A stretch of 64,000 nucleotides of DNA from a bacterium (GTDB taxonomy: Bacteria > UBA8248): contig OZ241996.1 of the NCBI GenBank assembly GCA_965204535.1, positions 704,001 to 768,000 of the forward strand, read 5' to 3'. Within the stretch, counting starts at the first letter, position 1. Each line of letters opens with the position of its first letter. Below, one piece after another: positions 29,345 to 58,431 of the stretch. A model generated the notes under the pieces. The model ran no database searches, was not told where the DNA came from, and was given only the letters and a program-made list of their open reading frames with translations. A program made the translations under genes and the position numbers.

Positions 29345-30217
29345 TTACCGGTTGAGGACTTGCTTCCAGTTTCTGCGCAACGGTCGTAGCCAGATGTCCT
29401 TTTTCGGTTGGTCTCGTTTCGTGTATCTGTCGTAGCGTCCACGCCCCTGGGTCATACCGACGTGAATCCACCCCGATGCCCTGTAGACGGCGCCGGTGTA
29501 GCGCGGCGTCTCGACGAAGGTCTCGACGAGGACGGGTGTCGTGCCATAGCGCTCGGTCCAGTCCTCGGGCAGGCGCCTGCGGATGATGGCGAGGAGGTGT
29601 GAGCCGAGGTTGAGGATCCTGATCCATGGCAGGATGAGGAACCTCGGGTTGTCGACCACGAGGGGGAGGTTCTTCTCGCGCAGCTGCGGCGTCCAGCCGA
29701 TGAAGCTGTCGCGCGGGGCGAGCTTCCACGCGGCGGTGGAGAAGCCGAGCATGGCGAGGGGCCTGCCGCCCCGGTCGTGGACGGCGTAGCGCATCTGCGC
29801 GCCGACGAGGGTCTTGTAGCCGAGGTAGTGGTAGCGGGCGACGAACTCGTTCCAGAGCCTGCCCTCGCGGGTTCCGCGCACGGCGACGCGCATATCGAGG
29901 GGGCGGACTTCGTCGAGGGTCTCAGGCGCCGGGATGAGGGGAGGTTCGGTGTCGGGTCCGAAGACGATCGGCCCGGGCCGGTTCTGGCGCCACTTCGGTG
30001 GGGGCAGCGTGATCAGGCCGTCCTTGTGCATGGCCAGCATAGTCACCCGGGCCATCATGTCCTTGAGTCCGCCGTCGGGCTTGTACCAGCCGATTCGGCG
30101 GCAGAACTCCTTCGATAGCGCATGGCGGTTGAGCGCAGGTGGACCTGCGATCAGTTCGCGCAGCAGCGCCATCTCTTCCGTCGTGAAGTCGCGTCCGTGG
30201 TAGCGGCACTCGGTCAC
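29345..30217 (-). CDS. DUF4338 (Druantia DruA-like) domain protein
   Basis: RYHYLGY, RDSFIGW, NPRFLILPW, LVETFVE, YRASGW..VGMTQGRG. Confidence 0.85.
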   Translation of the reverse strand: MTECRYHGRDFTTEEMALLRELIAGPPALNRHALSKEFCRRIGWYKPDGGLKDMMARVTMLAMHKDGLITLPPPKWRQNRPGPIVFGPDTEPPLIPAPETLDEVRPLDMRVAVRGTREGRLWNEFVARYHYLGYKTLVGAQMRYAVHDRGGRPLAMLGFSTAAWKLAPRDSFIGWTPQLREKNLPLVVDNPRFLILPWIRILNLGSHLLAIIRRRLPEDWTERYGTTPVLVETFVETPRYTGAVYRASGWIHVGMTQGRGRYDRYTKRDQPKKDIWLRPLRRNWKQVLNR

Positions 30218-30221
30218 GGCG

Positions 30222-32576
30222 TCATCCCGGCGCCGTGAGGGCGCGCCTGCGCTCCGTGCTCATCGACCAGGGCAGCCACGCGGAGAGGTCCCCGGGCGCC
30301 CGGCCGCCGTTCTCCGCGCAGGCCGTGAGCCATGCCTCCAGCCAGCGGAGCGGGTCGACCCCGTTCGACGCGAGGGTTCCGAGGACCGAGTACATCATCG
30401 CCGTAAACCTGGCGCCGGCCTCGCTGTCGGAGCCGAACGAGAGCCGCCTGCCGATCACAGGGCCCCGAAGCGCACGTTCGCTGGCGTTGTTATCCATCGG
30501 CACCGAGGGGCGTTCGATGAAGACGCTCAGCCCCTCGCGGTGGTTCAGCAGCGAGCGAAGCGCCTTGCCCTCGCGCGCCTGCGCGGGCAGAGCGGCCATC
30601 TCCCGTCGGGCCTGCGCGAACAGGTCCTTGAGCGCCTTCTTCAATTCGTCGTGCGCCGCGTCGAACGCCGCATCCTGGCGTTCGACGCCCGGGTCGTAAC
30701 TGGCCAGGCGCGCCTCGTTCAGGCGGTAAAGCAAGGCAATCCGCTCGATCCATCTCTCGCACCACGGCGTCAGCCGCTCATCGCCGGCGGCGCAGTGGAT
30801 ATAATCGCGCCGGACGTGACTCCAGCACCATGCGAGAGTCACCAGACCCCCGGGAATGCGCGCCAGCTTCTTGTAGGCGCTGTAGCGGTCGCAGACGATG
30901 ACCGTATGGGAGCCGGCCGCGCCGAACAGCTTCATCGCGACCTCAGCACTCCGCGAGGGGTCGACGTGGAAGTAGACGGAGTCTGCGCTGACCGAGGTCC
31001 ACAGCCAGGCGCGGCTCGAGCGTCCTTGTTCGCGAAGCGACTGAACGCGCCACGTCGTCTCGTCCCCGTGACGCACCGCCGCTTCGTTCTGGCGGTCGAG
31101 GATCGCCGCAGCCAGCGGCTCGAAGAGCGGCGTGAAGCGGTGCGTGCTGTCGCCCAGTGTGCCTGCAGAGACCGGAAGCCCCTGGTCGGAGAGCCACGCG
31201 GCGACCCGGCGCAGCGGGCGGAAGCAGGCGTAGCGCTCGAACAGGAAGCGCGCCCACACGCTCGTCCCGTAAGGCGTGCCCGCGAACAGGCGCGGCGCGG
31301 CGGGCGCCGACACTTCCACCGGAGACGACGCGCACGCGCATCTCCTGCGCCATCTCGGACGGCGGATGACGCGCTTGTGGGCCGAGACTTCGATCTCGAA
31401 GATGGAGGAGACCTCGGCGCCATTGGCCACGTAGGGCTTCCCGCAACCGGCGCAGACGCGCGCACCGGCCGGCGGGTTGCGAACTTCGGTCCTCTCATCG
31501 AGCGCGGGCCGCGGGGTGCGGCCATGACCGGCGGCGCCGGGTTGCCGGCCGCGCCTGCGCTCCGAGCGCGGCCTCTCCTGCCGTTCGCTCTTGCGCCCGA
31601 ACAGTCTTCTCGCCAGCACCGCTCCGGTGGCGCGAAGCTTCGCGAGATCGGCCTCCAGCCGCGCCCGGATGGTCTCTGACTTGCGGAGCGCCCTGCGAAG
31701 ACGCCCGTTCTCCCTCGACAGCGACCTGAGCGCCGTCTTCTGGCGCCGCGACCTCCCCAGGGCCTTGCGCAGTTCCTCATCTGCACGAGACGGCGACTTC
31801 GAGCGCGCCGCCTCGAGAGCGCGCAGCAACCGCGCCTTCAGCCGTTCGGTCGCAATGCCTACGGCCCCCAGGGAGACTTCAAGACGGTAGACCTCCGCAG
31901 ACAGCGACTCGACCACCTCCGCCTGGTCGCGCAATCGCCTCAACTTCCTGTAGAGCCCGATGGCCTCCTCGTCCAGGCTCCGAATGGTCTCCTTGTCGGT
32001 CGCCGACTTCTGCTTCTCCAGGGCCAGACGATCTTCGAGCCGGGCAACTTCCTTCTCCCGCCGGCCGACCTCCTTGCGCAGGGCATGAATCGTCTCCTTG
32101 CGCTCCTCCAGGGCCTTGCGCAGCCGCCCCGCCTCCCCCGGCGACGGCACGCCCGAGAGCTCCTTGCGAAGCCGGACGACCTCCATGCGCAGCGACATGA
32201 GCGGGCTGCGCTTGCGCGGATCGACCCCCGCCTCCGCAAGCAGCTTCTCCAGCCGCGCCACTTCCGCCTTGAGCGACAGCGCGTCCTTCGCCGCGCGGCG
32301 GGCTTCCTTCGCCTCCCCGGCGGCCGCCTCGAGCTTCTTCCGGCTGGCGTCGAGATGCCGCTTCAGCTTGCCCGCACGGGAGCGGGAATCCACTTCCGCC
32401 CAACGCAACTCCTCGCAGCGCGCCTCCGCCGCCTCCGCGCGCGCACGCTCGCGCTCGTACAGCGAACGCCAGTACGCCTCTGCGGTTGTGGACAACCCGG
32501 GGGAATGAGGCCATGGCTCATCCGGCCTCTCGGCCAACGCCAACTCCGTCTCGACAGCTTCTGCGCGAATCTTCAT
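30222..32576 (-). CDS. IS66-family transposase (TnpC) with long coiled-coil N-terminus
   Basis: LFGRKSE, CAGC zinc finger, HGDETTW, CDRYSAY, CWSHVRR, DNNASERALR. Confidence 0.92.
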   Translation of the reverse strand: MKIRAEAVETELALAERPDEPWPHSPGLSTTAEAYWRSLYERERARAEAAEARCEELRWAEVDSRSRAGKLKRHLDASRKKLEAAAGEAKEARRAAKDALSLKAEVARLEKLLAEAGVDPRKRSPLMSLRMEVVRLRKELSGVPSPGEAGRLRKALEERKETIHALRKEVGRREKEVARLEDRLALEKQKSATDKETIRSLDEEAIGLYRKLRRLRDQAEVVESLSAEVYRLEVSLGAVGIATERLKARLLRALEAARSKSPSRADEELRKALGRSRRQKTALRSLSRENGRLRRALRKSETIRARLEADLAKLRATGAVLARRLFGRKSERQERPRSERRRGRQPGAAGHGRTPRPALDERTEVRNPPAGARVCAGCGKPYVANGAEVSSIFEIEVSAHKRVIRRPRWRRRCACASSPVEVSAPAAPRLFAGTPYGTSVWARFLFERYACFRPLRRVAAWLSDQGLPVSAGTLGDSTHRFTPLFEPLAAAILDRQNEAAVRHGDETTWRVQSLREQGRSSRAWLWTSVSADSVYFHVDPSRSAEVAMKLFGAAGSHTVIVCDRYSAYKKLARIPGGLVTLAWCWSHVRRDYIHCAAGDERLTPWCERWIERIALLYRLNEARLASYDPGVERQDAAFDAAHDELKKALKDLFAQARREMAALPAQAREGKALRSLLNHREGLSVFIERPSVPMDNNASERALRGPVIGRRLSFGSDSEAGARFTAMMYSVLGTLASNGVDPLRWLEAWLTACAENGGRAPGDLSAWLPWSMSTERRRALTAPG

Positions 32577-35784: not shown

Positions 35785-36225
35785 ATGGCATTCGGACTCA
35801 ACAGAGCGGAACTGATCGGGCGCCTCGGCGCCGACGTCACCGTCAACCATCTCGCGAGCGGCGGTCGCGTCGCGAATCTTTCCATCGCGACCGACGAGGG
35901 CTACGTCGACAAGCAGTCCGGCGAGCGGGTGGACAAGACCGAGTGGCACCGGGTCGTGACCTTCCAGCCCGGCCTGGTGGATATGTTCGAAAAGCACGCG
36001 AAGAAGGGCCGCCTGATCTACGTCGCGGGCAAGCTCCAGACCCGCCGCTGGAAGAAGGACGGGGAAGACTCGGACCGGTTCTCGACCGAGATCCTCATCG
36101 CGCCGGGCGGACGCGTGCAGTTCCTCGACAAGGTGAACGGGAACGGCAATGGCAACGGTAACGGCGCGCACGCCGAGACGGCGGCGGTGGCGGCAGGCGT
36201 AGCCGGGGACGACATCCCGTTCTAG
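35785..36225 (+). CDS. ssb: Single-stranded DNA-binding protein
   Basis: LNRAELIGRLGAD, KTEWHRVV, GKLQTRRW, C-terminal DDIPF. Confidence 0.95.
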   Translation: MAFGLNRAELIGRLGADVTVNHLASGGRVANLSIATDEGYVDKQSGERVDKTEWHRVVTFQPGLVDMFEKHAKKGRLIYVAGKLQTRRWKKDGEDSDRFSTEILIAPGGRVQFLDKVNGNGNGNGNGAHAETAAVAAGVAGDDIPF

Positions 36226-36232
36226 GCTCACC

Positions 36233-36268
36233 AGGGGTCGGCGCTTCGGCGTCGGCCCCTTTTCTTTT
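36233..36268 (+). terminator. Intrinsic terminator after ssb
   Basis: AGGGGTCGGCGC-TTCG-GCGTCGGCCCCT then TTTCTTTT. Confidence 0.8.
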
Positions 36269-36329
36269 GCTCCTTATCCAGAGAAGGTCCGCTCTGTCGG
36301 CTCTTCTCTAATCGGGACGAGCAAGTCAA

Positions 36330-36560
36330 GTTCCTCTGCCCTGGTTTTTCCGGATCTTTCCGCCTTGGCTTTAGACGATGCTCCATGGGGGTCTCGCTTC
36401 TCTACGTGATCGGCTCCCGGTCCGGGGCCGTCAACAGGATGGGGTCGGAGAACGAGGTGGAACAATCTCTCATACGCCCTCGCACCGTCACCGACGGAGC
36501 GGAACTGAGCCGACAGCGAACTCACCTCGTCCCTCGTCCCCACGGGAGCATCCTCTGCCA
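36330..36560 (-). ncRNA. Predicted bridge/seek RNA (ends approximate)
   Basis: Four segments match the element's own target flanks and circle junction in LTG-RTG-LDG-RDG order, with a hairpin between each pair. Confidence 0.8.
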
Positions 36561-36611
36561 TAGCGGAAGCTACTGTAATTTTCGGATTCTTCTCCTTTTG
36601 GATTCCCGATG

Positions 36612-37652
36612 TCAGGAGGCTACGTCATCCACGCCGTCGCGTTTCCAGCGGAACTCACTGCCGTCCATCCATATGCGGTGCATAATGACGCCGAGCCGGC
36701 GGGCGAGCGCAACCTTCGCGCGCGCCTTGCCGCGACGCTTCGCCACACCCATCGCCCAGGCTTTCAGCCACGACCACCGCGTCGTGCGCCCGAGCAAGGC
36801 GTTGGCGGCTTCGTAGAGCGCCGCGCGCATCATCGCGTCGCCGCACTTGGAGATTCTTCCCGTTCGGTCGACCTCTCCGGATTGCCATTTGCGAGGCACA
36901 AGCCCGAAGTGCGCGCCCACCGAGCGCGAGCGCGCAAAACGCGACGGCACGTCGACGCTCGCCCGGAAGGTCAGCGCCGTCACCGGACCCACGCCGGGGA
37001 CCGTCATCAGGCGACGGCAGACCGGGTCGACGCGCACCGCCTCCAGCATCATCCTGTGCAGCCGGACGTATTCCGCCAGCAACGCAGAGCGAGCCCGCAG
37101 CATCGGCGCCACCAGGCGCGCCAACTCCGGGCGATCCGCGACCAGACCCCCTACCCGCGCCTCCAGCCCGCGGCGGGAGACCTTGCCCATCTTCAGTCCG
37201 AAGTTGCGCAACGTGCCCCGGATGTGGGCCTCGGCGTCGCACAACTGCTTCAGCATGAACCTGCGGTTGGCGAGGAGCATGCGTTTCTCCTGGCTCGACA
37301 CCGTCTTCACGTGCACCGGGCGAATCAGGTTCGCGCGAACCAGCTGGGCGATCCCGCGCGCGTCGTCGCGGTCGCTCTTGTTCACCGTGGCCGAGAGCAC
37401 CGCCTTCAACTGCCGCGTCTCGGCGCAAACCACCGGGAGCCCGGCCTCGGCCAGGCCGTCATGGAGCCACTGCGACAGCGGCCCCGCCTCGAGGCAGATG
37501 CGCTTCACGCCGAAGTCCAGCCCGGTGAAGAACGCCGCGAGGGCCGCGGGTTCGCTCGCGACCTTCGCCTCCCGGACGATCCCGCCGTCCACGTCCACCA
37601 CGCACACACTCGTCCACTCCAACGACACGTCGAGTCCTGCAAAGTAGTTCAT
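36612..37652 (-). CDS. IS110-family recombinase/transposase
   Basis: FAGLDVS, CLEAG, KSDRDDA (DEDD); VPGVG, GLVP...QSG, GRISKCGD. Confidence 0.95.
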   Translation of the reverse strand: MNYFAGLDVSLEWTSVCVVDVDGGIVREAKVASEPAALAAFFTGLDFGVKRICLEAGPLSQWLHDGLAEAGLPVVCAETRQLKAVLSATVNKSDRDDARGIAQLVRANLIRPVHVKTVSSQEKRMLLANRRFMLKQLCDAEAHIRGTLRNFGLKMGKVSRRGLEARVGGLVADRPELARLVAPMLRARSALLAEYVRLHRMMLEAVRVDPVCRRLMTVPGVGPVTALTFRASVDVPSRFARSRSVGAHFGLVPRKWQSGEVDRTGRISKCGDAMMRAALYEAANALLGRTTRWSWLKAWAMGVAKRRGKARAKVALARRLGVIMHRIWMDGSEFRWKRDGVDDVAS

Positions 37653-38058
37653 GGCTGCTCCTCCTGCGGGCGAGAGACACCGGAGCCATCCCGGCCTCGC
37701 CTCGATCATATGACAGAGGAACATCCGCTACACGCGGTAGTTCGAGGGCCAACCCGATTACCCCATCTCTCATCTACCGGGAACACCCGGTAAATCCTCC
37801 GGTCCGTGAACGATGAACCATGTTCACGGAAGTCGGCATGCGCCTGTAATCATTCCCATGCTCCAGATAGTGGCTCGGTCCACCCCCCGCTGCGGGAATT
37901 TCGGGCCGGAAAAGACGGCCCGAAATGACCCTTTCCGCAGCATGAGAGATTGTTTCCCGATGAGCTTCGCCTTCATCGTGAAACACCAAAGGCTCTTGTG
38001 TCCCGGTGGCGGTACTACCCTCTCTCTCTTAGCGTCCTCATTTTAGCACGAACGCCGA

Positions 38059-38195
38059 GCGAATAAAGGGTGGCCGCAGGCGGCCATCATTTGCCGGTGC
38101 CCCCCAAAAAACGTCGAGCGGCGAAAAACAGGAGCGCCGCTCTATGAACCGTGTTTTTCGGGAACCCCCCGGAAAATGACAAGCCCTTGATTCGC
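38059..38195. promoter_or_regulatory. Large branched hairpin, candidate ssDNA (Frpo/ssi-like) element
   Basis: GCGAATAAAGGG pairs with CCCTTGATTCGC (11/12); TCATTTGCCGG pairs with CCGGAAAATGA (10/11); inner hairpins. Confidence 0.5.
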
Positions 38196-38292
38196 CCGCC
38201 TACGGGCATCGGTAACACCGCCCGATGCCCTTACGTGCTGAAAATGGGGCGCTAAGAAGCGCATCCGTTAACTCTCTACGAAGGAGAAAGGC

Positions 38293-38667
38293 ATGGAAAC
38301 CACCGTGGTGAACTTGAACGACTACGTTGCGCCTCAATTCGGAGGCGGATTGCTGGTCAGGATCGACCGCATGACGAAGTGGGGAAACCCCTTCCGCATC
38401 GGCAAGGACGGCGAGCGCGCCGAGGTGATCGAGAAATACCGGCGATGGCTCTGGGAAAGAATCCGGCGCGAGGAGCAGGACCTCTACGAACTCGCCGACC
38501 TGCAAGGCTGCGAGCTCGGCTGCCACTGCCATCCCCTTCCGTGCCACGGCGACGTACTCGCACGCGCCGCCGAGTGGGCCGCCAGGTATCTCGACGAGAT
38601 GCCGAAAGAAGTGGGGCGCAACGAGCGTGGCTACGCTCTTCCCGAATTCAACCATCCCCTCGCTTGA
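38293..38667 (+). CDS. DUF4326 domain protein
   Basis: RIDR.TKWGNPF, L.G.ELGCHCHPLPCHGDVL. Confidence 0.88.
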   Translation: METTVVNLNDYVAPQFGGGLLVRIDRMTKWGNPFRIGKDGERAEVIEKYRRWLWERIRREEQDLYELADLQGCELGCHCHPLPCHGDVLARAAEWAARYLDEMPKEVGRNERGYALPEFNHPLA

Positions 38668-38688
38668 GGACAACGAAAGGAGTGAACG

Positions 38689-39648
38689 ATGACTGCCACC
38701 GCGACACACGACCACAAGGAGAACATCATGCACGAGGTTGACAACATCGAAGCGCAGAACGAATCCTTCACCGCCATGGTATGCGGACAGGCCGCCCTCT
38801 TCGGCGCGACCCCCGGCCCTGACGAGTTCGACAACCGGCCCGTGTGGGGCGAGACCGAGGCCACCGCCGCCGTCCTCAAGGCATTCCACCTGCTCGCAGA
38901 AGCCGCGCCCGACGGAACGCAGCTTGCAGATGAGCGAAGAAACCTCCTGTGGGGCTTCGTCAACACCCTCGACGCCCAGACACAGCGCCTCGACCGCGCC
39001 GCCGACAAACTCATCCCCGGCATCCGTGAACTGCAGCGCGAGCAGGACGGCTCCGAGATCCGCTCCCGCGAACTCGAACTCGCCACCGACCGGGCCGAGA
39101 ATCTCACCGCCCGCCGCGACGCCTTCGAAGGGCTGCGCGACACGGCCGCAGAGGCCTACCGCGTCGAGACCGGCGAGGTATGGCGGCCCCGGCGAGGATC
39201 GCACGTCTCGCAGACCGGCAAGCTCACGTCTGCGGTCATCGAGGCGCGTGATTTCCAGCGCGCGAAAAAGGATCGCGAGAACACGGCCCACCTCCCCCAG
39301 GGAACACTCGTCGCCGTCGCGGGCGGCAAGGAAGCGACCGACGCCGGCAAGATCATCGGCCAGCTCGACAAGCTAAAAGCCAAGTACGCCGACGTCGTCC
39401 TCGTCCACGGCGGTGGCCCGGGTGCTGAGAAGATAGCGGCGGGATGGGCCGAGCGGAACGGCGTCCACCAGATCGTCTGCAAGCCCGACTGGGACGCGCA
39501 CGGTCGGGCCGCTCCCTTCAGGCGGAACGACGAGCTGCTCGGCCTCCTCCCCAAGGGCTTGATCGCGTTCCCCGGCTCGGGCATCACCGACAACCTCGTC
39601 GACAAGGCCAGAGCGCTCGGCATCCCCGTGCAACGCGTGGCCGCCTGA
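38689..39648 (+). CDS. DUF2493 (YspA/SLOG-like) domain protein
   Basis: VAGGK, LVHGG.PGAEKIA..WA, AAPFRRND, FPGSGIT.NL. Confidence 0.85.
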   Translation: MTATATHDHKENIMHEVDNIEAQNESFTAMVCGQAALFGATPGPDEFDNRPVWGETEATAAVLKAFHLLAEAAPDGTQLADERRNLLWGFVNTLDAQTQRLDRAADKLIPGIRELQREQDGSEIRSRELELATDRAENLTARRDAFEGLRDTAAEAYRVETGEVWRPRRGSHVSQTGKLTSAVIEARDFQRAKKDRENTAHLPQGTLVAVAGGKEATDAGKIIGQLDKLKAKYADVVLVHGGGPGAEKIAAGWAERNGVHQIVCKPDWDAHGRAAPFRRNDELLGLLPKGLIAFPGSGITDNLVDKARALGIPVQRVAA

Positions 39649-39683: not shown

Positions 39684-41465
39684 GAGACTGTGAAAGTATT
39701 CCCACGATTCTGGTGGGTGACGCTGGCGAGCGATGCCCGGGTTGTCTGTACATGCTATCTTTACCGGTGAGTGAGATAACCACATAAAGGGTCACCACCA
39801 TGTCCGAGAGACGTTATCAGGAGGTGCAGTCCCGAAGCCAGATGATGCTGCTTCCGCCGTGTCTGGACGACTACGTGTCCGAGCACAATGCGGTGCGCGC
39901 GATCGATGCGTTCGTCGGCACGCTGGACCTGGAGGCGCTGGGGTTCGCGCATGCCGAAGCGAACTGCGGCGCCGGTCAGCCGGCTTTCGACCCGGCGCTG
40001 CTGCTGAAGCTGTATCTGTACGGCTACCAGCACCGGGTACGGAGTTCGCGCCGTCTCGAAGCGGAGACGCGGCGCAATCTGGAAGTGATCTGGCTGTGCC
40101 AGGGTGCGACGCCGAGCTACAAGACGATTGCGGATTTTCGCAAGAACAATGTGGCTGCGCTGCAGGAGGCCAACCGGGAGTTCGTGCTGCTGTGCCGCGA
40201 ACTCTCGCTGCTGGGCGGCAGCCGGGTGGCGGTCGACGGGACTTTTTTGAAGGCCGATGCGAACCTGGACAGCTTCCAAACCAAGCGGTCCCTGGCAAGG
40301 GACCTGAGGCGTTTGGAGAAGAGGATTGCGGCGTATCACCGGCAGTTGGACGAGGCGGATGCGCGCGGGGAGGAGTGTGGGGACGGTTCGGAGGATCCGG
40401 ACCTGCCGGTGAAGCTCAAGGCCTTGATCGAGAGGCAACAAAAGAAGAAGGCACTGCAAGAGCATTTGCAGGAAAGCGGAGAGCGTCAGGTATCGGGGGT
40501 CGATGCAGATGCTCGACTTCTGAGGAACGGCGATATAATGGTGGGCGGATACAACTGCCAGATCGCGGTGGACGACAAGCACAAGCTGATTGTCGCGGAG
40601 GATGTGGTGCAGGACGGCAATGACTCCGCTCAGTTGGAGCCGATGATGACGAAAGCCGGCGAAGCCATGGGCAGCGAACGCCTGGTCGGCCTGGCGGATT
40701 CGGGCTACTTCAACGGCGCACAGTTGAAGAGTTGCGAAGACAAGGGAATGGAGGTGTATGTTCCGATACCGAACCAGACGGCCCGCAAGGGCAAGGACGG
40801 ACGATTCGGCAGCGATGAATTCCGTTACGATGCGCAGGATGACACGTATGTCTGTCCGGCCGGAGAGCGTCTGGTTCGAGGCGGCACGACCACCGTCAGG
40901 GGCAGGCTGTATTACTTTTATCGCGGGACGGCGGCGGTTTGCCGGGACTGTTCGTTGTCGGGCCGATGCCTGACAAAGTCGAGATCGACGCGCAGGATAC
41001 AACGCTGGGAGCATGAGGACGTGGTGGACCGGCATCGCAAGAAGATGAACGCCCGTGTGCCATTGATGCGCGGGCGAAGCACACTCGTCGAACATCCATT
41101 CGGTACGATCAAGCGCTGGGCGGGGATGGATCATTTTGTGATGCGCGGACTCGGCAAATGCCGCGGCGAATTCAGCCTGATGACGCTGGGTTACAACTTC
41201 AAGCGGGTCATGCGTGTGCTGGGCGGAGCTGCATTTGTGGAGCATTGTCTGCAAAAACAGCGGTTGGGGACGAATGGCGTGTGAACTTGAAGCCGATTCT
41301 TCGAGGACTTGACCGCGACCCCGAGCTGACCGGCCGCCGAGACGTTTCTCTCCCGGCTCTGCGGTGTTGTTGCTCCCGAAGTTGAAGACAGTGTCCGGCC
41401 ATCGGGCTGCAAGCGTAAGCGAGCCCTGTTCCGGAGACTGTGAAATCCAATACTCTCACAGTCTC
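39684..41465 (+). mobile_element. IS1182-family element
   Basis: 17-bp TIR GAGACTGTGA(A/G)AGTATT; 9-bp TSD CGCCGCCCG at 39675-39683 and 41466-41474. Confidence 0.92.
39800..41284 (+). CDS. IS1182-family transposase
   Basis: SSRRLEAE, TIADFRK, VDGT, GYNCQ, ADSGY, VEHPFGTIK. Confidence 0.95.
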   Translation: MSERRYQEVQSRSQMMLLPPCLDDYVSEHNAVRAIDAFVGTLDLEALGFAHAEANCGAGQPAFDPALLLKLYLYGYQHRVRSSRRLEAETRRNLEVIWLCQGATPSYKTIADFRKNNVAALQEANREFVLLCRELSLLGGSRVAVDGTFLKADANLDSFQTKRSLARDLRRLEKRIAAYHRQLDEADARGEECGDGSEDPDLPVKLKALIERQQKKKALQEHLQESGERQVSGVDADARLLRNGDIMVGGYNCQIAVDDKHKLIVAEDVVQDGNDSAQLEPMMTKAGEAMGSERLVGLADSGYFNGAQLKSCEDKGMEVYVPIPNQTARKGKDGRFGSDEFRYDAQDDTYVCPAGERLVRGGTTTVRGRLYYFYRGTAAVCRDCSLSGRCLTKSRSTRRIQRWEHEDVVDRHRKKMNARVPLMRGRSTLVEHPFGTIKRWAGMDHFVMRGLGKCRGEFSLMTLGYNFKRVMRVLGGAAFVEHCLQKQRLGTNGV

Positions 41466-44127: not shown

Positions 44128-46238
44128 TCACCGAAGTGCCAAAAAACAGCAGAACTTGACCTTTTCTCCTGACCCACAGGGGCACATTTCATAGGGTTTT
44201 AAGTTATTGGCTTTGCATAGATCATCCAGCAGAAATCGGCTTCGCTTTCGCCAGCTAGCCACTCGTTCTTCCCCGTTACGAAGGTCGCCCCATACGGCAG
44301 GTCGAAGACGCGGGCCAGAGGCTCGCGTCATAAACAGCCCTGAGAGTTGATCCCGAGCTTGTTCAAGAACGGACATCGAGAGCGCTTGACGCAGTCCGGC
44401 ATTCACCGCCGTAATTACCTGCCCCCCTCGTTTGTCGCAAGGCGCTCTGCTACCTCGCGACGAAAACTCTTCCCACTGGCCGATTCCCTAAAGTGCAATA
44501 CTCCACGTAGCAGTTCTGGCTGCTCCTCGATCAAAGCACCCAGATCCGAATTAAACCGACCGGTCAAGACGTAGCTTGCCGCGTCGTCGGCCCACTCCGT
44601 CCCGGCAGAAGCGGAGAAAGCTACGCTCGCCAGCTTTTCACACCCCAAGAGTAGCCGCGTAGCGCTGGCGTTGGTTTGTTGACATATAACTCCCTTGCCT
44701 ACTACTCCAGCCAAGCGCAATACGGGAAAGACCAACCATCGTGGGACGGCGCCTCGCGGTGTTCCCCCGCTAATGCCCAAGAGTCGACGAATGGAGGGAT
44801 GCATCATGGCACTGCGAGTTCTGTCCGACACTTGATCTGTCTTTAGCGCATGCGTCAGATCGACTGAAGACGACTCAAGCATGTCCATCTGTCTTTCCGC
44901 TATTTCTTCTTTGCCCGGTATGGGCGTCAGATGCCGACGAATTCTCTCGGCGACCGTCATCTCCTCGAACGACTCTGTGGAACTAGCCCTAGAGCCCAAC
45001 CTGATTTCCTTTATATGGCCTACCAGAGCGCCCGGTTCCGGAAAGACCACGACGGGTTCTGGCGGTGGGATGACCAGCCGTATCGCCCCGGCTTCGACGA
45101 ACTCCCAAAACCAAGCTGAACCCAGCAGGTTGTGCAACTTTCCCAAGTGGCCGATCGACAGGCAAATCACATCGAAACAGACCAAACCGACGACGATATC
45201 GTGCAATGCCGAGTAGTCGTGAAGAACCACTTCGCCATCTACATAGCCTTCACCGATGATAAGTTCCCGCGTTCCCGAACTGTTCTCCGCGGTCACCGTT
45301 TGCGACGTGGTGAACTTACCCGGAGGTAGTAACTCTCCAATGAAGCAGATGCTCTCACCGTTGCGTTCCTCAATCCCGGTATCCCCCGGAGTTGATGTGG
45401 TCGGACCTGGCTGAGGCCTGATGTCCGCAACGGCTTCAAGTGTCAACAATGCGCTTCGATGGTCCGGCGGGTCGGCGACATAACTGATACGTCTCACACC
45501 TAGAGGAATTTCGGACGATCCTTCCGGAGTGACGATGAAATGCGGACCCGTTCCAAATAGCGGATGGGTTGTCGAACTGTGTTGAAGGGCGGAAATCACG
45601 TGTTGGTCTTGGAAACCATAGCCTAGAAACAGAACCGTTGAATTGGAGAGGACCGAGTGAAGAGAATTCAGGAACGGGATGTCAATTTGAATATCGTCGT
45701 AGTCCTGTTTGGAGAACACCATGGTCTCGACCGCGCTGATCGAACCATGCAGCTTGCATATGAACGCCCTGCCTTCGGCTAGGAGTTGCCGCATACGTTC
45801 GGCGTCGGACCGTTGAACGGTCTCCCGTCCGATTAGGTGATGCTCGAGGGATTCGTCAACGTTGGTGGTCACGATGCCCGTCGGCTTGACCTGCTCCAAT
45901 GCATGCAGCATTCGTCTATAAACAGGGGTTGGTTGCCGATACGAAAAAGCGTCAAGGAGACAAGAGAAATAGAGCTCTGAATCGCATGTCCGCATCTCCT
46001 GAAAAAGCTTTGGGTATGCTTCCGCCGCCAATAGAGCCGAGGTAGTGTTCTTGGAGTAGGTGCTCACCTCTCTTGTAAACCGCCTGTGCATCTGTTCGGC
46101 GAGCTCGCGCCACAATGGGTAGCCCATCCACGCACTAGTGCCAGCACCCAGCCAGACAACTAGAGGACCGCCGCGACTCCGAATCGCCGAATCGAGGGCG
46201 TTTAGGGCATTGAACGTCTCTTGATCTTCGCAGAACAT
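44128..46238 (-). CDS. SIR2-like domain protein with C-terminal SEC-C motif, split by a frameshift at a G6 tract (44422-44427)
   Basis: WLGAGTS...PLWREL, VTTNVD, KLHGS, FLGYG; downstream frame ends CPCGSGEKVKFCC; one extra G fuses the two frames. Confidence 0.75.
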
Positions 46239-46861: not shown

Positions 46862-48202
46862 GGTCAAGTCCTGTAGATGCTGGATAATTTCTTAGGGCGC
46901 ATATCGGCCGAGGGCTGCCTGATGTCGTTTTCCGCCTCGTAGTTCTGGTCCAGTTCCCTTCTGAGGGCGTCCATCTGGCGGCGCTCGAAGCCGGTGACCC
47001 TGAGCGCCCGCCATCGCTCCGAAGCCCGGATCATGGCGGCGAACATGAGCTTGAGCACCGGCTTTTCCCCGAAGGCGTTGGGAATGATCTTCATCCGCCT
47101 CCGCTCCTCGACGAACAGGCGCTCGAGCAGGTTCGTGGTGCGCACGGCGCGGCGGTGGTTGACGGGCGCCCGCAGATGCGCGATGCAGGCTTCGAAGTCG
47201 TCGCGGAAGCACGCCACGGCGCCGGGCAGTTCGGACTCGTAGTCCCTGACTATCCCTTCGGCCAGTTCCCGGGCGATGGCGCGCGAGGTTCCTCATCCGG
47301 TGCGCCAGGCAGCGTTGCCGCTCCGAGCGCGGGAAGCAGGTCTCGATCGCCTTGACGATGCCGGGCGCTCCGTCGCTGACCACCAGCAAAGGGTCGCCCA
47401 GGCCGCGGGCGCGCATGTCGTGGAAGAACGCGCTCACCGTCTCGGCGTCTTCTTTCGAACCCGCCATCAGGTGCAGGAGAACCTTCGCGCCGTTCGCCGT
47501 GAATCCCCAGGCCGCCAGAACCGGCTCGCGCCTGCTCCCCGGGCGGATACGTTCCGCAATCCCGTCGATGAACAGATAGACGACCTCGTGCTCGCCCAGG
47601 TCCCTTGACGCGAACTCCTGGTAGTCTTCCCAGAGGCGTTCGCCGAGTTCGGAGACCGCCGTGCGCGAGAGCAGAAGACGACCGCTCTCGTCGGTGAAGA
47701 CGTCTTCGATGTCGCGCACCGACAGGCCGCGCGCCAGAAGCTCCACCGCCAGCCCCTCGAGCGCCTCGGTGCGCCCCTTGAGGCCCTCGCGTATCTCGGA
47801 GCGGAACCCTTCCTCGCGCCCGGCAATCTGAGGCGCCGCGTACTCGATGAACCCTTCGGCCGTCTTCAGACGACCCGGGCGGTGACCGTTGCGGTAGCCC
47901 TGGCCGGGCTTCGCGCCGTGTTCGTAGTACTCCCGGCCCAAAGCGTCGTGGCTCTCCGCCTCCAGCGCCTCTTCCACGATGAGCCGCGTGGCGAGCTTCA
48001 CCAGATCGGCTCGCGCATCGGGACTCGACAGACGGCCTTCGATCAAGTCGGACAGGGATTGGCGGGTATGTATCGATGCCTGTATTCTCTTCTTCATGGG
48101 GTTGCCTCCTCGGTGGGACGCCGGCGCTCACCGGCACGGGTTCATGGTTCCTCCGCCGAGGATGCACCCCTCCAAAGTTTCCAGCAAGTTTAGGACTTAA
48201 CC
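46862..48202 (-). mobile_element. IS256-family element with internally deleted, frameshifted transposase
   Basis: Imperfect IRs GGTCAAGTCCT.../GGTTAAGTCCT...; YRNG, FIDG, SDGAPG, QRCLAH, TTNLLER; frame breaks near 47283; no TSD seen. Confidence 0.88.
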
Positions 48203-48635
48203 CTCTTTCTCCCCTTCTTCAAGATGAATCGTTTGCATCGCTTTTATTCGGCTCTTGCTATTCATCCCTTGCTTTCAGCCCTAACTTTTGCTGCCGCTTT
48301 AACTCTTGCTATCGCTTGGGATGTTAATAGCTTGTGCTAAACGGAATTGGGAGTCCCGTCTTTAACCACACCTGTAAAGCTTTCAAGCAACGTTAGTAGC
48401 GTTGCAAAGGTAGAAATCCCCGCCTCTTGCCAGAGACTATAGTAATATGAAGAATTCTTCGGAGCTACTAAGAGGTACTTCTAATCAGTTTATATTACTC
48501 CAGTGTCGGTTAAATCAATACGCGGCCTACAGAGTTGGCTACAAAGATTTTCTTCTTTATTGCTGGAGATAGTATAGGTCTTTACATAAAATTCTGTAAG
48601 TTTTTTGAAGAGTTTTATCAAGAAGGATTCAAAAC

Positions 48636-49322
48636 ATGAAACTAGGAACAAATGCAATTCAGTTGTTTTTACAATTTTTTGGTTGGTTTATTTCCACCGA
48701 TCTTATTTGGAATTTTTCAGGGTTTAAAACCAAGCTTAAACTTGCCATACCTCTACTTGAACCTTTCTTTCCAGCCATATCTGTTGCGTTGATTTTTACA
48801 CTTATTGCAATACATTATGGCAAAATTCTCTCGTTGTTTTTTGCTTCAGTAAGATTCCATTCATATTATGAAAAACTACTCGAATGGAGCGATCATGTTA
48901 ACGGAAGAAAACCAAGGGCAGAATCATCTTATTCTTTGTCATACGATGCCTCAAAACAAATAATAGACGTATGTCAAAGATTCAATATCCCTTACCCGAC
49001 ACCCATAGAAAAAGTGGATTTTAAAGCAATGTCTTTTTATGGTGATGAAAAAGCGGATGAGGAAAGATTAGAGATATGGGGTATCTTTGCTGACGATATT
49101 GCACGTTGCGCCAGCAACAAGAATTTGCATAAAGCACAAGAAATTTTAATGAATGAAGATGAGAGAGCAAAAGCAGCTTTGACTAGAAAAAAGCGACTTA
49201 ATCACCTTACTATATGTATCGTTTTGTTAACCATTTTGTTAGTCATTCTGATCAGTATGATCATTAAAAAATGGGATGTTTGGGTATATTTGTTTAATCT
49301 AACATTTAAGGCGGCAAGGTAA
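48636..49322 (+). CDS. Hypothetical AT-rich membrane protein
   Basis: 228-aa ORF with N- and C-terminal hydrophobic segments, between two IS256 copies. Confidence 0.55.
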   Translation: MKLGTNAIQLFLQFFGWFISTDLIWNFSGFKTKLKLAIPLLEPFFPAISVALIFTLIAIHYGKILSLFFASVRFHSYYEKLLEWSDHVNGRKPRAESSYSLSYDASKQIIDVCQRFNIPYPTPIEKVDFKAMSFYGDEKADEERLEIWGIFADDIARCASNKNLHKAQEILMNEDERAKAALTRKKRLNHLTICIVLLTILLVILISMIIKKWDVWVYLFNLTFKAAR

Positions 49323-49328
49323 TTTCCT

Positions 49329-50740
49329 GAGTTACTGTCAAATGTTGTGTATGGCCGTCCTGAATCCAGCGACCTTCCTGCCCGTTTCTATTTCGTTCAC
49401 TCCATCGACGAACCTCACGTCGGCGATTACGTCGGCCAGATGACGGAAGCCGCGTAGCCGGCGCCATCGCTTCTCGGCGCTCATGGCGAGCTGATGCACG
49501 AGGCACAGCGCCGTCTTCTCACTCAAGCAGTTCCTGGTCTTCGCCGTTCGCAAGCGAATGGTGGCGAAGGTCGACTCGATGGGGTTCGTCGTCCGTAGAT
49601 GCCCCCAGTGCGCCGCCGGGAAGTCGTAGAAGGCGAGCAACTCCTCCCGGTCTCTCGCCAAGCATTCGGCCGCCTTGGGATACTTCGCCTCCCAGGTGGC
49701 ACAGAAGCGTTCGAACGCCTTGTGCGCATTCATCCGGGTGTCGGCCCGCCAAATCTCGTGCAGCATCGACTTCGCTTCGCCCTGAACGCATTTGGGCAGC
49801 TTGTTGAGCACGTTCGCCGTCTTGTGAACCCAGCAGCGCTGCGCCCGCGTCTCGGGATACACCTCGGCCAGAGCCGACCAGAACCCTAATCCCCCGTTGC
49901 CCACGGCGAGCTTCGCCGCCTTTACGCCCCGGTCCCGCAGGCTCAACAGAACCGCTTTCCAACTCTCCTTCGATTCCCGGAACCCCGCCTCCAAGGCCAG
50001 GAAGTGCTTGCGGCCACGCACGTCGCACCCCACCACCACCAAAAGACAGCGCCGCTCCTCGCCACGCACGTTCACGTAGATGCCGTCCGCCCACAGATAC
50101 GCGAACTCCTCGCCATGCCATTCCCGCTCACGCCACTCGGCGTACTCACGCTCCCAGCCGCTCTTGAGCCGCGCGATCGTCGCCGGAGACAAACCCCCCA
50201 CCGATTCGCCAAACAGCGCCGTGAGCGCCTCGCCGAAGTCGTTCGTCGATATCCCCTTCAGGTACAGCCACGGAATTACCGCCTCCACACGCCTCGCCTT
50301 CTTCAAATACGGCGGCAGCAACTCCGAGCGGAAACACCGCCCCGCCCCGGACCTGTCCCGCGTCCGCGGAACACGAACCCGCACCGGCCCGATTCCCGTC
50401 AAAATCTCCCGTGACACCAAATAGCTGTTGCGGTAGCCCTGGCCGGGCTTCGCTCCATGCTCGTAGTACTCCCCGCCCAGCGCGTCGTGGCTCTCCGCCT
50501 CGAGCGCTTCCTCCACGATGAGTCGCGTGGCCAGCTCCACCAGGTCGCCCCCGCATCCGATGTCGACAGACGACCTTCGATCAGGGCGGACAGGGTCTGA
50601 CGTGTATGCTCCGATGCCTGTATTCTCTTCTGCATAGGAGTGCCTCCTCGGTTGGATGCCGACGCTTACCGGCACGGTTTTGTGATGCCTCTGCCGAGGA
50701 TGCACCCCTCCAATGTTTCCAGCAAGTTTAGGATTTTACC
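49329..50740 (-). mobile_element. Chimeric, inactivated IS256-family element
   Basis: 5' part resembles 47888-48202; 3' part is a different IS256 (WADGIY, QRCWVH, RTTNPIES); early frameshift; second catalytic Asp reads Asn (AVGNG). Confidence 0.85.
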
Positions 50741-55170: not shown

Positions 55171-57618
55171 TCAGTCACCTGCCGTACGATTCTTTTCAAC
55201 TCTGCGTAAGCTATCAATGAAGATTTCATTTTTCGTATTGCTTTCCAGTAGCCCCTTCAACGTAGCCCAATATTCGGTTGATACCGAGCAAGCAATCTTC
55301 GAACAAATTTCAAATGCCATCGTCTCTTCCAATTTCTGCCATTTCTCACTCATAATTATCTGAGTTCTGGAAGAATTCAGATCCAAGTCCATGCTTCCAC
55401 AAACATCTACCACTATCAACATTGGGAATGGCCAATTCAGTTTTACCTGATTTTTTTGCATTCTCCACGATTCTGGAAATAGCGTTGTAGGGACTTCAAT
55501 TCCGTGCAACGAAAGCCAAGATTTCGATTTCCAATGACTACTATATAAATTCGACTGCTCTATTATTCCTCCTTCATCTATAGTGATTGATGTCGTAGAC
55601 TCCTTTATTTCATTACTGACCATCCGCAAACTCTTGTCTAAAGAATAATCTTCACCTTCAATCACAATAGACTTGGACGTCATTTCAATACTAGTGGTCG
55701 GCGAGCCATGAGACTCTAATATCGCTACAATGACGGAGCCAACAAATCCTTTTTCTTGATTATCAAAATCTATGTTAAATACTCTAATATTATCATGCTC
55801 ATCCCATGTATGTTCTCTTAGTTGTTCAGCCTTTATTTCCTTAAACGATTTTTCATCTCTTATTTTTTCTTGAGATTCTGTTTCTATTACTATCTTGAAT
55901 GGCGGGTTTGGCAATACGTTTTCAACGGACTTAATGAACTCGTCTTCGCTCAAATTATCCCACGGATTTACGTTTTTTCTGAGGAATAGTTTGGTTGATG
56001 TTCCGGGTATTGTTCGTTGCCCCGGCTTTATCCAAAATATGCTTTCTTGGCCTTCAATAGTAATATTTATCGCGTCACTCGAATCGTGAGGTCCATAAAC
56101 TCTTCGGGTATCTACTACCAATGTATCAGCCACCATAAAGCAAGACAAAATCCCTATGCCAAATCGAGATATTGGCATAAACTTCGCCTTTGCTATTGAC
56201 TTTAGTTCATAAAAATCAGGAGACATATAAAATGACGATCCGACTTTTGAATAGTATGCGTCGATAATATGCTGATCCATTCCAGTCCCATTATCAATTA
56301 TCTCAAGTACGTCTCCATCGGTTTCAGTTGAATATTTTATGTGTATCTCTGGTTCGTATAAATTGCCCCAACTCTTTTCCATAGCGCTTCGCAGCAAACA
56401 AGCGTCGATCGAATTCTGCAATAACTCTCTAAGAGGAACTTCTGGGTCACCATATAATTTCGTGCCCATTAATAAATCTATAACTTGATTTTTACTCAAG
56501 TTGAACTGTGCTTTTTTATAGAGATAAAGCGGCTGACCATTAATACCTTTCTTTGTTTCAATTTTTGATCTATCCACCTTAAAGGGAATACTAGTTGTAT
56601 GTTCTTTTCCTTGGTTTCTATCGAAATCGTTTATTGATGAAATAATATTATTGCAGGCGCTTAACTCCCGATCGATAATGTCGCAAAAATCGTGAATTGA
56701 TGCTTCTATAGCAGGATGTATGCACTTGGCATGAAATTGAATAGATTCCTCACTGATAGACCATGCTTCAATAGCTCTGTGTTTATTCCATTCGTTGATC
56801 GATATCGGATTCCTTACAAACAGATGCGAGAATAAGACTTCCGGTGTTCTCTTTGCGTCGAAATCAAGAATATCTGCAAGCCTCAATATCACGGCGATTA
56901 GTTGCAAATTAGCATATATACCGTCCCCACAAAGATAGTTTCTGTCGAGTTCCAAAAGTGAGAGAGCGTCATTACTGTGACTGAAACAAATTTCTGCAAA
57001 ATCGACAGTTAAATCGACGTCTCTATACCTTATTTTTTCATTCCAATGTTTTTCAATAATGTCCCTTGCTCGTTCGGCATGTGTAGCTCTAATGTAATCG
57101 GAAACAATGTAATTTTTCAGCAAATCCGCTTCGCTATTTTTCCCCTGCGCGATGTACGATTCAATCTGCGAGTTAAGCTCCGGCTTTGACAAATAGAATC
57201 TTTGAAATTTACTGAACTCATCGTTTTCTTCATCTGATAGCGATGGAGATATGTCCCAAACCTTTCTCCATGAAGTTACATCCTTTTCTTTAGCCGCCAT
57301 TCCAATATCATGAAAAAATGCACTAAGTATCAACAACATCAATTCCGGGACTGAGAGTTCTTTAATTTTGCCCGGAGAAAGTAGCTTCTCCATTAACTTT
57401 AAAACACGGAATAGATGGTCGCCATCATGGAGAGTAAATTCTCCCATGTGCATTAGAATCGTCTTGGTTTTCTGGTATGCAAAAGACGTTGCTTCATCAA
57501 CGAGAGATAAGACCTGATTGCCAGGAGAATTGCCCTCACATTTTTCCCTTAATGCGCAGTAAATAGCACTCTTGTGTAATCGCTCTTGTGTTTCCGCTTT
57601 CCAGTCATCGCCACTCAT
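55171..57618 (-). CDS. HD-CE-type HD domain fused to Hsp90-like GHKL ATPase
   Basis: FTLHDGDH, FHDIGM, LRLADILD; LYGDP..LRELLQNSIDA, DNGTGMD, SRFGIGILSCFM; start reset to MSGDDW. Confidence 0.85.
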   Translation of the reverse strand: MSGDDWKAETQERLHKSAIYCALREKCEGNSPGNQVLSLVDEATSFAYQKTKTILMHMGEFTLHDGDHLFRVLKLMEKLLSPGKIKELSVPELMLLILSAFFHDIGMAAKEKDVTSWRKVWDISPSLSDEENDEFSKFQRFYLSKPELNSQIESYIAQGKNSEADLLKNYIVSDYIRATHAERARDIIEKHWNEKIRYRDVDLTVDFAEICFSHSNDALSLLELDRNYLCGDGIYANLQLIAVILRLADILDFDAKRTPEVLFSHLFVRNPISINEWNKHRAIEAWSISEESIQFHAKCIHPAIEASIHDFCDIIDRELSACNNIISSINDFDRNQGKEHTTSIPFKVDRSKIETKKGINGQPLYLYKKAQFNLSKNQVIDLLMGTKLYGDPEVPLRELLQNSIDACLLRSAMEKSWGNLYEPEIHIKYSTETDGDVLEIIDNGTGMDQHIIDAYYSKVGSSFYMSPDFYELKSIAKAKFMPISRFGIGILSCFMVADTLVVDTRRVYGPHDSSDAINITIEGQESIFWIKPGQRTIPGTSTKLFLRKNVNPWDNLSEDEFIKSVENVLPNPPFKIVIETESQEKIRDEKSFKEIKAEQLREHTWDEHDNIRVFNIDFDNQEKGFVGSVIVAILESHGSPTTSIEMTSKSIVIEGEDYSLDKSLRMVSNEIKESTTSITIDEGGIIEQSNLYSSHWKSKSWLSLHGIEVPTTLFPESWRMQKNQVKLNWPFPMLIVVDVCGSMDLDLNSSRTQIIMSEKWQKLEETMAFEICSKIACSVSTEYWATLKGLLESNTKNEIFIDSLRRVEKNRTAGD

Positions 57619-58431
57619 GATGCCCCATTTCCTCCTTAATGTATCTAATTGTAACTGCACATCGTTTTTGTTCGCCGAGCAAACACCGATATGCAACCAT
57701 GCGTAGGGGTGGAGCCTTTCCTTTTGGTATATCAGAGTAGCACAGGCGGCGGCTGAGGGTGATACTTTTCGGACAGGACGTAGCTTGACCAGAGAACGGT
57801 GCCACCCCCGGTCAAAGAATCCCTTGTGGATCCGGTGCGCGGGTATGCAATCTGTGCACGGACGCATGATGCCCCTTAGGCGGCCTGCGTCGGCGCGACC
57901 TAGTTATTGGGATGAGGTGATGAGCCGCCACCTTCCTGGCCCCAAATACGGCCCAACGCTATGTAGGTGGCGGCTTCACTATGCAGGGCGACGACTCCGA
58001 CATGTTGGCGGAGTGGGTTAAGGCTGACTGGCCGCTGCAGGAGGCAGATGTGGTGACATTGTTCACCGCTGACTTCCACTGTTTATGGCACCGATAACTG
58101 ACTGGTGATGTCGACGGAGTGGCAGGCCATCCATATCATTCCGTACAACTTCTTTATCCATAACCCCGCGCTGAAGATCCGGTCGAAGTAAGGAGACGGG
58201 CGAGGGGCGCCGCTCCGGAGAGGTGGGTCGGGCGAGAATCGAACTCGCGCAAACAAATTTGCAGATTCGGGTGACTGTCCGCTTGGCTATCGACCACGGT
58301 GCTTTTCGCATTTTGAACAGCATCCTGTTCAGCCTTAGGTCTAGATACGGAGTCTGGGATATGGGGTGGCTCGTGGAGTTCATTGAGGAGCGGGACGCGG
58401 TTGATGAGGTACCTTATGGCATTGTTCCTAC

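Follow-up and report, generated by a model that had tools for sequence, protein, structure and literature searches.

The window analysed here, a 64,000-nt stretch of bacterial DNA (GCA_965204535.1, contig OZ241996.1, positions 704,001 to 768,000), contains an insertion sequence that an earlier note had read as an intact IS1111-type element with a decodable bridge RNA. The locus prompts one to ask if the short RNA matches at the element's ends are guides that direct its movement. We hold with high confidence that this is an intact IS1111-group insertion sequence, present in four identical copies and carrying 3' guides that match its own ends and site, and that its movement is likely guided by bridge RNA.

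The element has the protein and the ends of the IS1111 group

As shown in Table 1, the element encodes an IS110-family recombinase, which scored 231.6 bits against NF033542 (cut-off 140) in a profile search. In the alignment to 8WT6, its residues D8/E55/D94/D97 and S258 align with D11/E60/D102/D105/S241 of IS621, and the hallmark of the IS110 family, a DEDD RuvC-like domain joined to a Tnp domain with a catalytic serine, is present. The subterminal inverted repeats are 8 bp long, inside the range of 7-17 bp given for the IS1111 group in PMC11208160, and this repeat, together with the short left end and the long right end, places the element in the IS1111 group as the text of that paper defines it. 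The span of 36294..37773 proposed in the earlier note had the location right but took in target bases, which lie outside the element proper.

The membership features that sequence can decide, namely domains, catalytic residues, guides, covariation of the target guides with insertion sites, repeats and ends of unequal length, support the view, already taken in that note, of a new, intact IS1111-group bridge recombinase that appears recently active. It is a clean new example of an already known mechanism and not a new type of system: 93% of the IS1111s in ISfinder had already been predicted to carry a bridge-type RNA (PMC11208160), and a member of the element's clade may already be listed in ISfinder and in the supplementary tables of that paper. 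The closest relatives fall in records titled Nitrospinota, and many of the runs with related sequence are sponge or marine metagenomes, with shares near 0.3 that make this a habitat hint only.

Table 1. Features of the element and of its insertion site (coordinates of the window)
Feature	Position	Strand	Basis or remark
IS1111-group element	36305..37768	-	1,464 bp, one CT core copy included
Element ends			left end 116 nt, 5' of gene; right end 307 nt, 3' of gene
IS110-family DEDD recombinase, 346 aa	36612..37652	-	PF01548 + PF02371; NF033542; alignment to 8WT6
Subterminal inverted repeat TAATCGGG, right element end	36309..36316	+	sequence
Subterminal inverted repeat CCCGATTA, left element end	37753..37760	+	sequence
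Predicted bridge RNA, ~194 nt	36377..36570	-	RNA ends predicted
Left target guide CUGUCGGCUC, DNA CTGTCGGCTC	36507..36516	-	sense of left target plus first core base
Right target guide AUGAG-AG	36467..36473	-	complements core plus CTCAT
Target-loop handshake dinucleotide AU	36465..36466	-	predicted pairing with donor A6/T7 after strand exchange, cf. IS621 A81/U82
Left donor guide ACCCCAUC, DNA ACCCCATC	36438..36445	-	sequence and RNA alignment
Right donor guide UAGAGAAG, DNA TAGAGAAG	36397..36404	-	sequence and RNA alignment
Predicted -35 box TTGACT	36324..36329	-	17 nt before GAAGAT hexamer; hexamer only across circle junction
Left target CT-GTCGGCT plus core CT (core 36303-36304)	36294..36304	+	
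Left donor ACCCCAT (37760-66), core CT (37767-68), right target CTCAT (37769-73)	37760..37773	+	
Host backbone left of insertion: ssb gene (35785-36225), intrinsic terminator (36233-36270)	35785..36270	+	PF00436; terminator scan
Host backbone right of insertion: conserved intergenic stretch with hairpins, DUF4326 gene (38293-38667), SLOG/YAcAr gene (38689-39648)	37774..39648	+	

Four guides match the target and donor around a predicted CT core

The four guides lie on the minus strand exactly where, and in the order in which, the earlier note had placed them. In 200,000 random 282-nt windows of the same genome, core-touching matches of 10, 7, 8 and 8 nt occurred at rates of 0.0007, 0.038, 0.011 and 0.003, respectively, which multiply to ~9e-10; nine of the random windows held all four matches, roughly the number that could come from the four copies of the element itself. 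The left element junction reads CTGTCGGCT-CT-TCTCTAAT and the right one TTACCCCAT-CT-CTCAT. IS621 numbering (the register described in PMC11208158) gives GTCGGCT-CT-CTCAT as target and ACCCCAT-CT-TCTCT as donor. Seen from the gene, the guide that comes first is complementary to the top strand, an order also described for the seekRNAs of IS1111 elements (PMC11187229); the left donor guide has 8 nt, the last of them at the core C.

Comparison with siblings identifies the predicted crossover core as the CT dinucleotide at 36303-04 and 37767-68, a test in which only the neighbouring base is independent because the pattern used to find the ends demanded AG at both of them. The core TCT proposed earlier was ruled out: the siblings have only CT in common with the donor, and those with 95% identity carry C instead of T before the core in their targets (for example, GGTCGGC-CT-TTCCT in L003), so the T at this position is a coincidence of the element's site. 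The DNA at minus-strand 36473-36466, ATGAGAGA, had been taken whole as the right target guide; seven of its bases do complement core and target, but the eighth is the first handshake base in the IS621 register. The two bases behind the right target guide, AU, are the same in all aligned RNAs (38 of 38) and suit donor A6/T7 in the way that A81/U82 of IS621 do.

The register of the left target guide is not the same throughout the close clade. In L001-L006 and L009 the left target stands at guide positions 2-8 and is followed by both core bases; in the window's element and L010 it stands at positions 3-9 and is followed by the core C only, with a loop as long as in the siblings. A relic RNA in the same genome apparently has the register of the window's element. 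Holding one register fixed across the close clade gave a poorer fit (110 of 40,320 permutations scored as high), which is how the one-base slip was found. The window's left guide differs from that of L002 by two substitutions at the 3' end and reuses its GUCGGC seed at a site where an extra base precedes the core. Insertions in the target are tolerated among the IS621 off-targets reported in PMC11208160; the slip seen here, as read from guides and flanks, is unlike that tolerance a cognate and apparently fixed state.

Guides covary with flanks, and siblings have been retargeted

The earlier note had named covariation of guides with flanks across homologous copies as the check on its reading. 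From 141 loci of relatives found in two collection scans, 140 and the window were parsed, and among these 141 entries an RNA could be recognised in 107, a left end in 81 and both ends in 66; the 34 without RNA were dropped. Ends were called from the terminal motif and inverted repeat, not from the target guides. Across 35 distinct guide pairs, the right target guide agreed with the flank of its own element at 3.83 of 5 positions (1.53 permuted) and the left one at 5.89 of 7 (3.45 permuted), both scores being the best of four registers. None of 20,000 permutations reached the observed value for either arm; because the relatives are kin, such p-values overstate the significance. With G-U wobble allowed, both arms matched in 46 of 65 relatives with both ends, one arm in 17 and neither in two.

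Siblings with 95-97% identical proteins carry different guides and sit at other sites that match those guides, and this retargeting is, judging from protein identity, recent; ISEc11 and ISXne4, the retargeted pair described in PMC11187229, are 72% identical. L001-L003, L005 and L006 sit in a repeat with 27-49 matching copies in the source genome, L009 elsewhere in the same mobile backbone as the window's element, ~65 bp downstream of its target, L010 in a group II intron (Rfam RF02005) and L012, a 79% relative, between the two reading frames of an IS5-type transposase. The word 'reprogrammable' in the earlier note thus holds for natural retargeting among relatives, by sequence only, and no further. 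Three 95-96% siblings, L007, L008 and L015, are found at sites whose fit to their own guides is poor or confined to one arm, which could reflect off-target insertion, half-match recombination (as described in 10.64898/2026.08.31.748434) or trans mobilisation by a sibling RNA with the same donor loop.

The same relatives bear on whether the guide matches might be coincidence or leftovers of duplication, with the protein or DNA structure picking the site. A target stem-loop helps ISPpu10 (10.64898/2026.03.19.712850), and a 7-bp hairpin lies 1 nt to the right of the window's target. Against this, 95-97% identical siblings are found at unrelated sites that match their own guides, and 31 natural targets of the clade show no general hairpin excess (mean z -0.04 to -0.67), which gives no support to a conserved target stem-loop of the ISPpu10 dual-match type. 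We find site choice independent of the guides scarcely credible.

In a soil clade (L023, L076, L086-L088, L091-L093, L095, L100, L115 and L127) the targets resemble tRNA 3' ends (GTTCGAGTCC...CCA) and may be att remnants; among 65 rebuilt target sites of relatives, ARAGORN detected no complete tRNA.

Copies of the element occupy guide-matched sites in a repeated backbone

The genome holds four full copies, identical over the whole element. Three of them lie at one site just 3' of the ssb terminator of a repeated backbone, each at a guide-matched site, and the fourth lies in an unrelated locus, where the target departs from the guides by one distal mismatch and one wobble. The same RNA at unrelated targets, which the earlier note had held to speak against its reading, was thus not what we found. 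Eleven backbone sites are present, of which two in the same 15-kb duplication were counted once, giving ten. (Two 15-kb C1 blocks within C1:183067-215427 of G000 are 99.6-99.9% identical to both C2 ends, a possible assembly or strain duplication.) The ssb and SLOG genes are neighbours at 10 of 10 sites and DUF4326 at 9 of 10; for 8 of 10 sites a TrwC relaxase lies less than 40 kb away, and for 8 of 10 a tyrosine integrase does. The backbone is hence likely to be part of integrated mobilisable elements. In the window itself, the backbone copy lacks a relaxase at this distance. The intergenic target stretch is present in 13 of 23 genomes of the genus, the source genome included.

Occupancy of the backbone sites follows the guides. 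True mismatches are absent from the filled sites, whose wobbles number 0, 1 and 1, and each of the seven empty ones has at least one true mismatch; 3 of 3 mismatch-free sites are therefore filled compared with 0 of 7 mismatched ones (Fisher p = 0.008, for classes set after seeing the data). The genome no longer offers a perfect 14-nt target that is empty, only one single-mismatch site is empty, and seven wobble-only sites elsewhere (2-4 wobbles) are all empty.

On a rival view, a single insertion was followed by passive spread of the copies along with the mobile backbone, and the element is now inactive; that three of the four occupy the same backbone site speaks for it. Also consistent with such inactivity, no circle junction was found in the assembled contigs of public runs X1, X2, X3 and X21, contigs being a form in which rare variants are dropped, or for the fourth copy in X1-X4; three skip joints in the contigs of X1, X2, X3 and X21 proved to be mismatched empty paralogues. 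However, between filled sites 14-19 of 250 nt of flanking backbone are different although the elements are identical, so the insertions appear recent and independent. Moreover, the paralogue closest to one of the filled sites, with 5 differences, is mismatched and holds no element, and the fourth copy sits outside the backbone. We consider passive spread very improbable.

The 5' end of a large cadherin-like gene holds the fourth copy (L166, G000:C2:559142-560668), which lies in a (CTCGGCT)n heptamer tract, likely one for phase variation. The rebuilt empty site of this copy is 2 nt (CT) longer than the empty paralogue L165 (G000:C2:26224-26335), through either slippage at insertion or prior divergence; its empty allele was not found in X1-X4. 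Four (CGGATGA)n heptamer tracts of 11-21 units (G000:C1:217921, C2:17025, C2:31092 and C2:1574089) are likely further phase-variation tracts.

Decayed relatives are also present in the genome. L163 (G000:C2:374338-374546) is an orphan decayed bridge-RNA region with the right end of a sibling and no recombinase gene after it; its right target guide is that of L001-L006, and its donor loop is damaged. L161 (G000:C2:480677-480889) is the truncated left end of a 97.7% identical copy that abuts a relic of a second lineage's RNA gene, and its right target, CGCAT, fits the guide of L010, not that of the window's element. Inserts at the target site in genomes G022 and G006 were ruled out as insertion sequences, being a longer form of the backbone with a TraI/primase-like gene. 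In this longer form, recorded from two genomes other than the source genome (L198:373-1365 and L199:327-1319), the TraI/primase-like gene lies between the ssb terminator and the target, a position in which the source genome's backbone copies have none.

Elsewhere in the window, an IS66-type transposase is followed by a DruA-family gene at 29345-32576 (-), a unit repeated ~12 times in the genome. Island genes at 39800-41284 (+), 44418-46238 (-), 46895-50705 (-) and 55174-57867 (-) comprise a DUF772/DDE transposase (~13 copies), a SIR2-like protein, two Mutator-type transposases and an HD-CE/HSP90-like ATPase protein; some of this cargo is possibly defence genes.

Stems of the predicted RNA covary, and a junction promoter is predicted

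The predicted bridge RNA consists of a 5' hairpin, a closing stem, a target-binding internal loop and donor guides in a multiloop, the last a feature noted for many IS1111s in PMC11208160. Its region folds with z = -2.84, and hairpins lie between each pair of guides, as had been proposed. The structure model was drawn from the window's sequence, and the alignment comprised 38 sequences, all that passed a filter on loop length and 93% identity but L024 and L135. In these RNAs the target-loop stem is 92-93% paired, 8 of 14 pairs of the closing stem have changed on both sides, and the inner hairpin aligns poorly (51% paired). Over all stems, both-side change affects 19 of 42 pairs compared with 12.5 +/- 1.9 in shuffled and 7-13 in slid controls. 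An Rfam scan of the RNA gave no family at the gathering score and two weak matches.

The target guides vary in the alignment (commonest letter 34-58% at variable columns), and the donor guides are fixed. This pattern bears on a version of the mechanism in which only a short processed RNA with the two target guides works, the protein recognises the ends mainly through the subterminal repeats and the matches of the donor guides play a secondary part. For ISEc11 to move, an 82-nt seekRNA was enough (PMC11187229). In the present clade, donor guides barely vary, right ends are near invariant (AGAGAAG in 64 of 66) and donor covariation is thin, with one clear case of co-change, L065, in which the end and the right donor guide both read AAAGAAG. 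Likewise, the donor-loop handshake dinucleotide, CG in most cases, shows no covariation with target positions 6-7, whereas such covariation is reported for IS621 orthologues (PMC11208158). On the other hand, the donor guides are kept at 79-100% per column down to ~60% protein identity and lie within the covarying closing stem, a conservation that implies function. We therefore regard the reduced role of the donor guides as unlikely and retain the full bridge RNA as the preferred reading.

The TTGACT that the earlier note had seen near the right end is present, and its TTGAC is kept 16-17 nt before the junction hexamer in 32 of 33 distinct right ends; the junction promoter that it would form with GAAGAT stays a prediction. 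Because this -10 hexamer has 3 of the 6 consensus bases, conservation is the evidence that backs the promoter. A sigma-70 scan of the integrated form did not flag it, the promoter being absent from that form, and RNA run X21 gave only scattered low-depth pieces and no usable expression signal. Junction promoters are documented for ISEc11 and IS621 (PMC11187229, PMC13626964).

A proposed cycle

By analogy to IS621 and ISEc11, we infer a cycle that extends from the anatomy, guide-flank covariation and occupancy pattern, which were observed directly, to expression, a circle, catalysis and a benefit of the site. Rare read-through transcription would yield recombinase and RNA, and the element ends would be joined at the CT core into a circle. 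Joining would set TTGACT 17 nt before the new GAAGAT hexamer and so create a promoter for gene and RNA. The donor guides would then open ACCCCAT-CT-TCTCT and the target guides GTCGGCT-CT-CTCAT, and strand exchange by the DEDD and serine active sites would take place at CT, an AU handshake to donor A6/T7 favouring insertion. By specifying a site in non-coding DNA just past the ssb terminator, in a mobilisable-element backbone, the guide may give the element a renewable, multi-copy landing pad that spares host genes.

Comparison with known systems

IS621 and ISCro4 (IS622; PDB 8WT6 and 9T56), as described in PMC11208160 and PMC11208158, share with the element the DEDD and serine active site, the guide order LTG-RTG-LDG-RDG, a 14-nt target and donor with a CT core, an 8-nt left donor guide ending at the core C, the AU handshake with donor A6/T7 and a junction promoter, the last two being predictions for the element. 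The element is distant from IS621 in sequence (phmmer E ~1e-13), its RNA lies 3' of the gene whereas that of IS621 lies 5', and its target orientation is opposite to the gene. Unlike IS621, it has 8-bp subterminal repeats, donor guides in a multiloop and a left target guide that ends at the first core base.

The seekRNA elements ISEc11, ISKpn4, ISPa11 and ISPst6, as presented in PMC11187229, resemble it in their short left end, long 3' non-coding region and subterminal inverted repeats, in a top-strand match 5' of the bottom-strand match relative to the element, and in a junction promoter (predicted for the element), natural retargeting (ISEc11 versus ISXne4) and targets in repeated or mobile DNA. 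This is a likeness of layout; the target itself differs, being here the ssb-downstream site of an integrated mobilisable backbone. An IS110-family transposase of an alphaproteobacterial plasmid, WP_040138479.1 (Azospirillum argentinense), is 62% identical over 98% of the protein. Relatives at that distance have the same RNA layout, and the alphaproteobacterial-plasmid relatives of this type, annotated only as IS110 family transposase, have guides and targets different from the element's.

Some relatives carry guides aimed at another IS110 lineage

A second IS110 lineage, L200/L201 (341 aa, NF033542, CG core), is 30% identical over 245 aa. In another genome L200 (L200:370-1745) lies 45 bp downstream of the target used by the window's element, within the same intergenic stretch of the backbone, and one 100-bp intergenic stretch thus serves at least three guide sets (those of the window's element, L009 and L200). 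The guides of L008, a 95% sibling of the window's element, specify a 14-nt site in the bridge-RNA gene of the second lineage, L201 and L203 among them. When 100 predicted targets of the first lineage were compared with 12 second-lineage RNA genes, only that of L008 matched (2 exact, 2 with one mismatch). A further sibling, L016 (L016:1178-1390), is inserted at a site matched by the L008 guides, and L209:1420-3855 and L210:1420-3394 are nested in second-lineage siblings at right-donor-guide DNA, with their own target guides matching the site. Separately, at L231 (G011:C1:4139961-4140037) a 70-bp duplication of an element end lies at the DNA for its own right donor guide, as if that DNA had been used as a donor half-site.

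These observations can be read as a guide-level contest in which the clade are hyperparasites and bridge recombinases compete by RNA guidance, as opposed to neutral use of a conserved landing pad. Three points favour it: retargeting has taken place among multi-copy mobile DNA (the mobilisable-element backbone, a REP-like repeat, a group II intron and an IS5 frameshift site), in one genus no fewer than three guide sets (L008, L209 and L210) aim at another element's right-donor-guide DNA, and nested insertions (L016, L209 and L210) are actually present there. We put it forward tentatively, as possible rather than probable. IS1111s that target other mobile elements have long been known, to judge from reference titles in PMC11208160; a weak phrase search of the literature found nothing on guides aimed at another IS110's RNA gene. 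If the reading is true, insertions into right-donor-guide DNA would disable the resident's donor recognition, and guides aimed at another IS110's bridge-RNA gene would matter more as true competition.

Because the mechanism is already published, the element by itself is simply a further orthologue, and its worth lies in being a natural data set: a CT-core IS1111 recombinase that looks active and whose RNA is fully decoded, siblings (95-97% identical protein) whose targeting has already shifted to at least five other sites, ten paralogous targets within a single genome sorted by guide match, and a natural one-base change in arm spacing. Overall, these form a panel for the specificity rules of IS1111-type elements, which are studied less than those of IS621 in the papers cited here.
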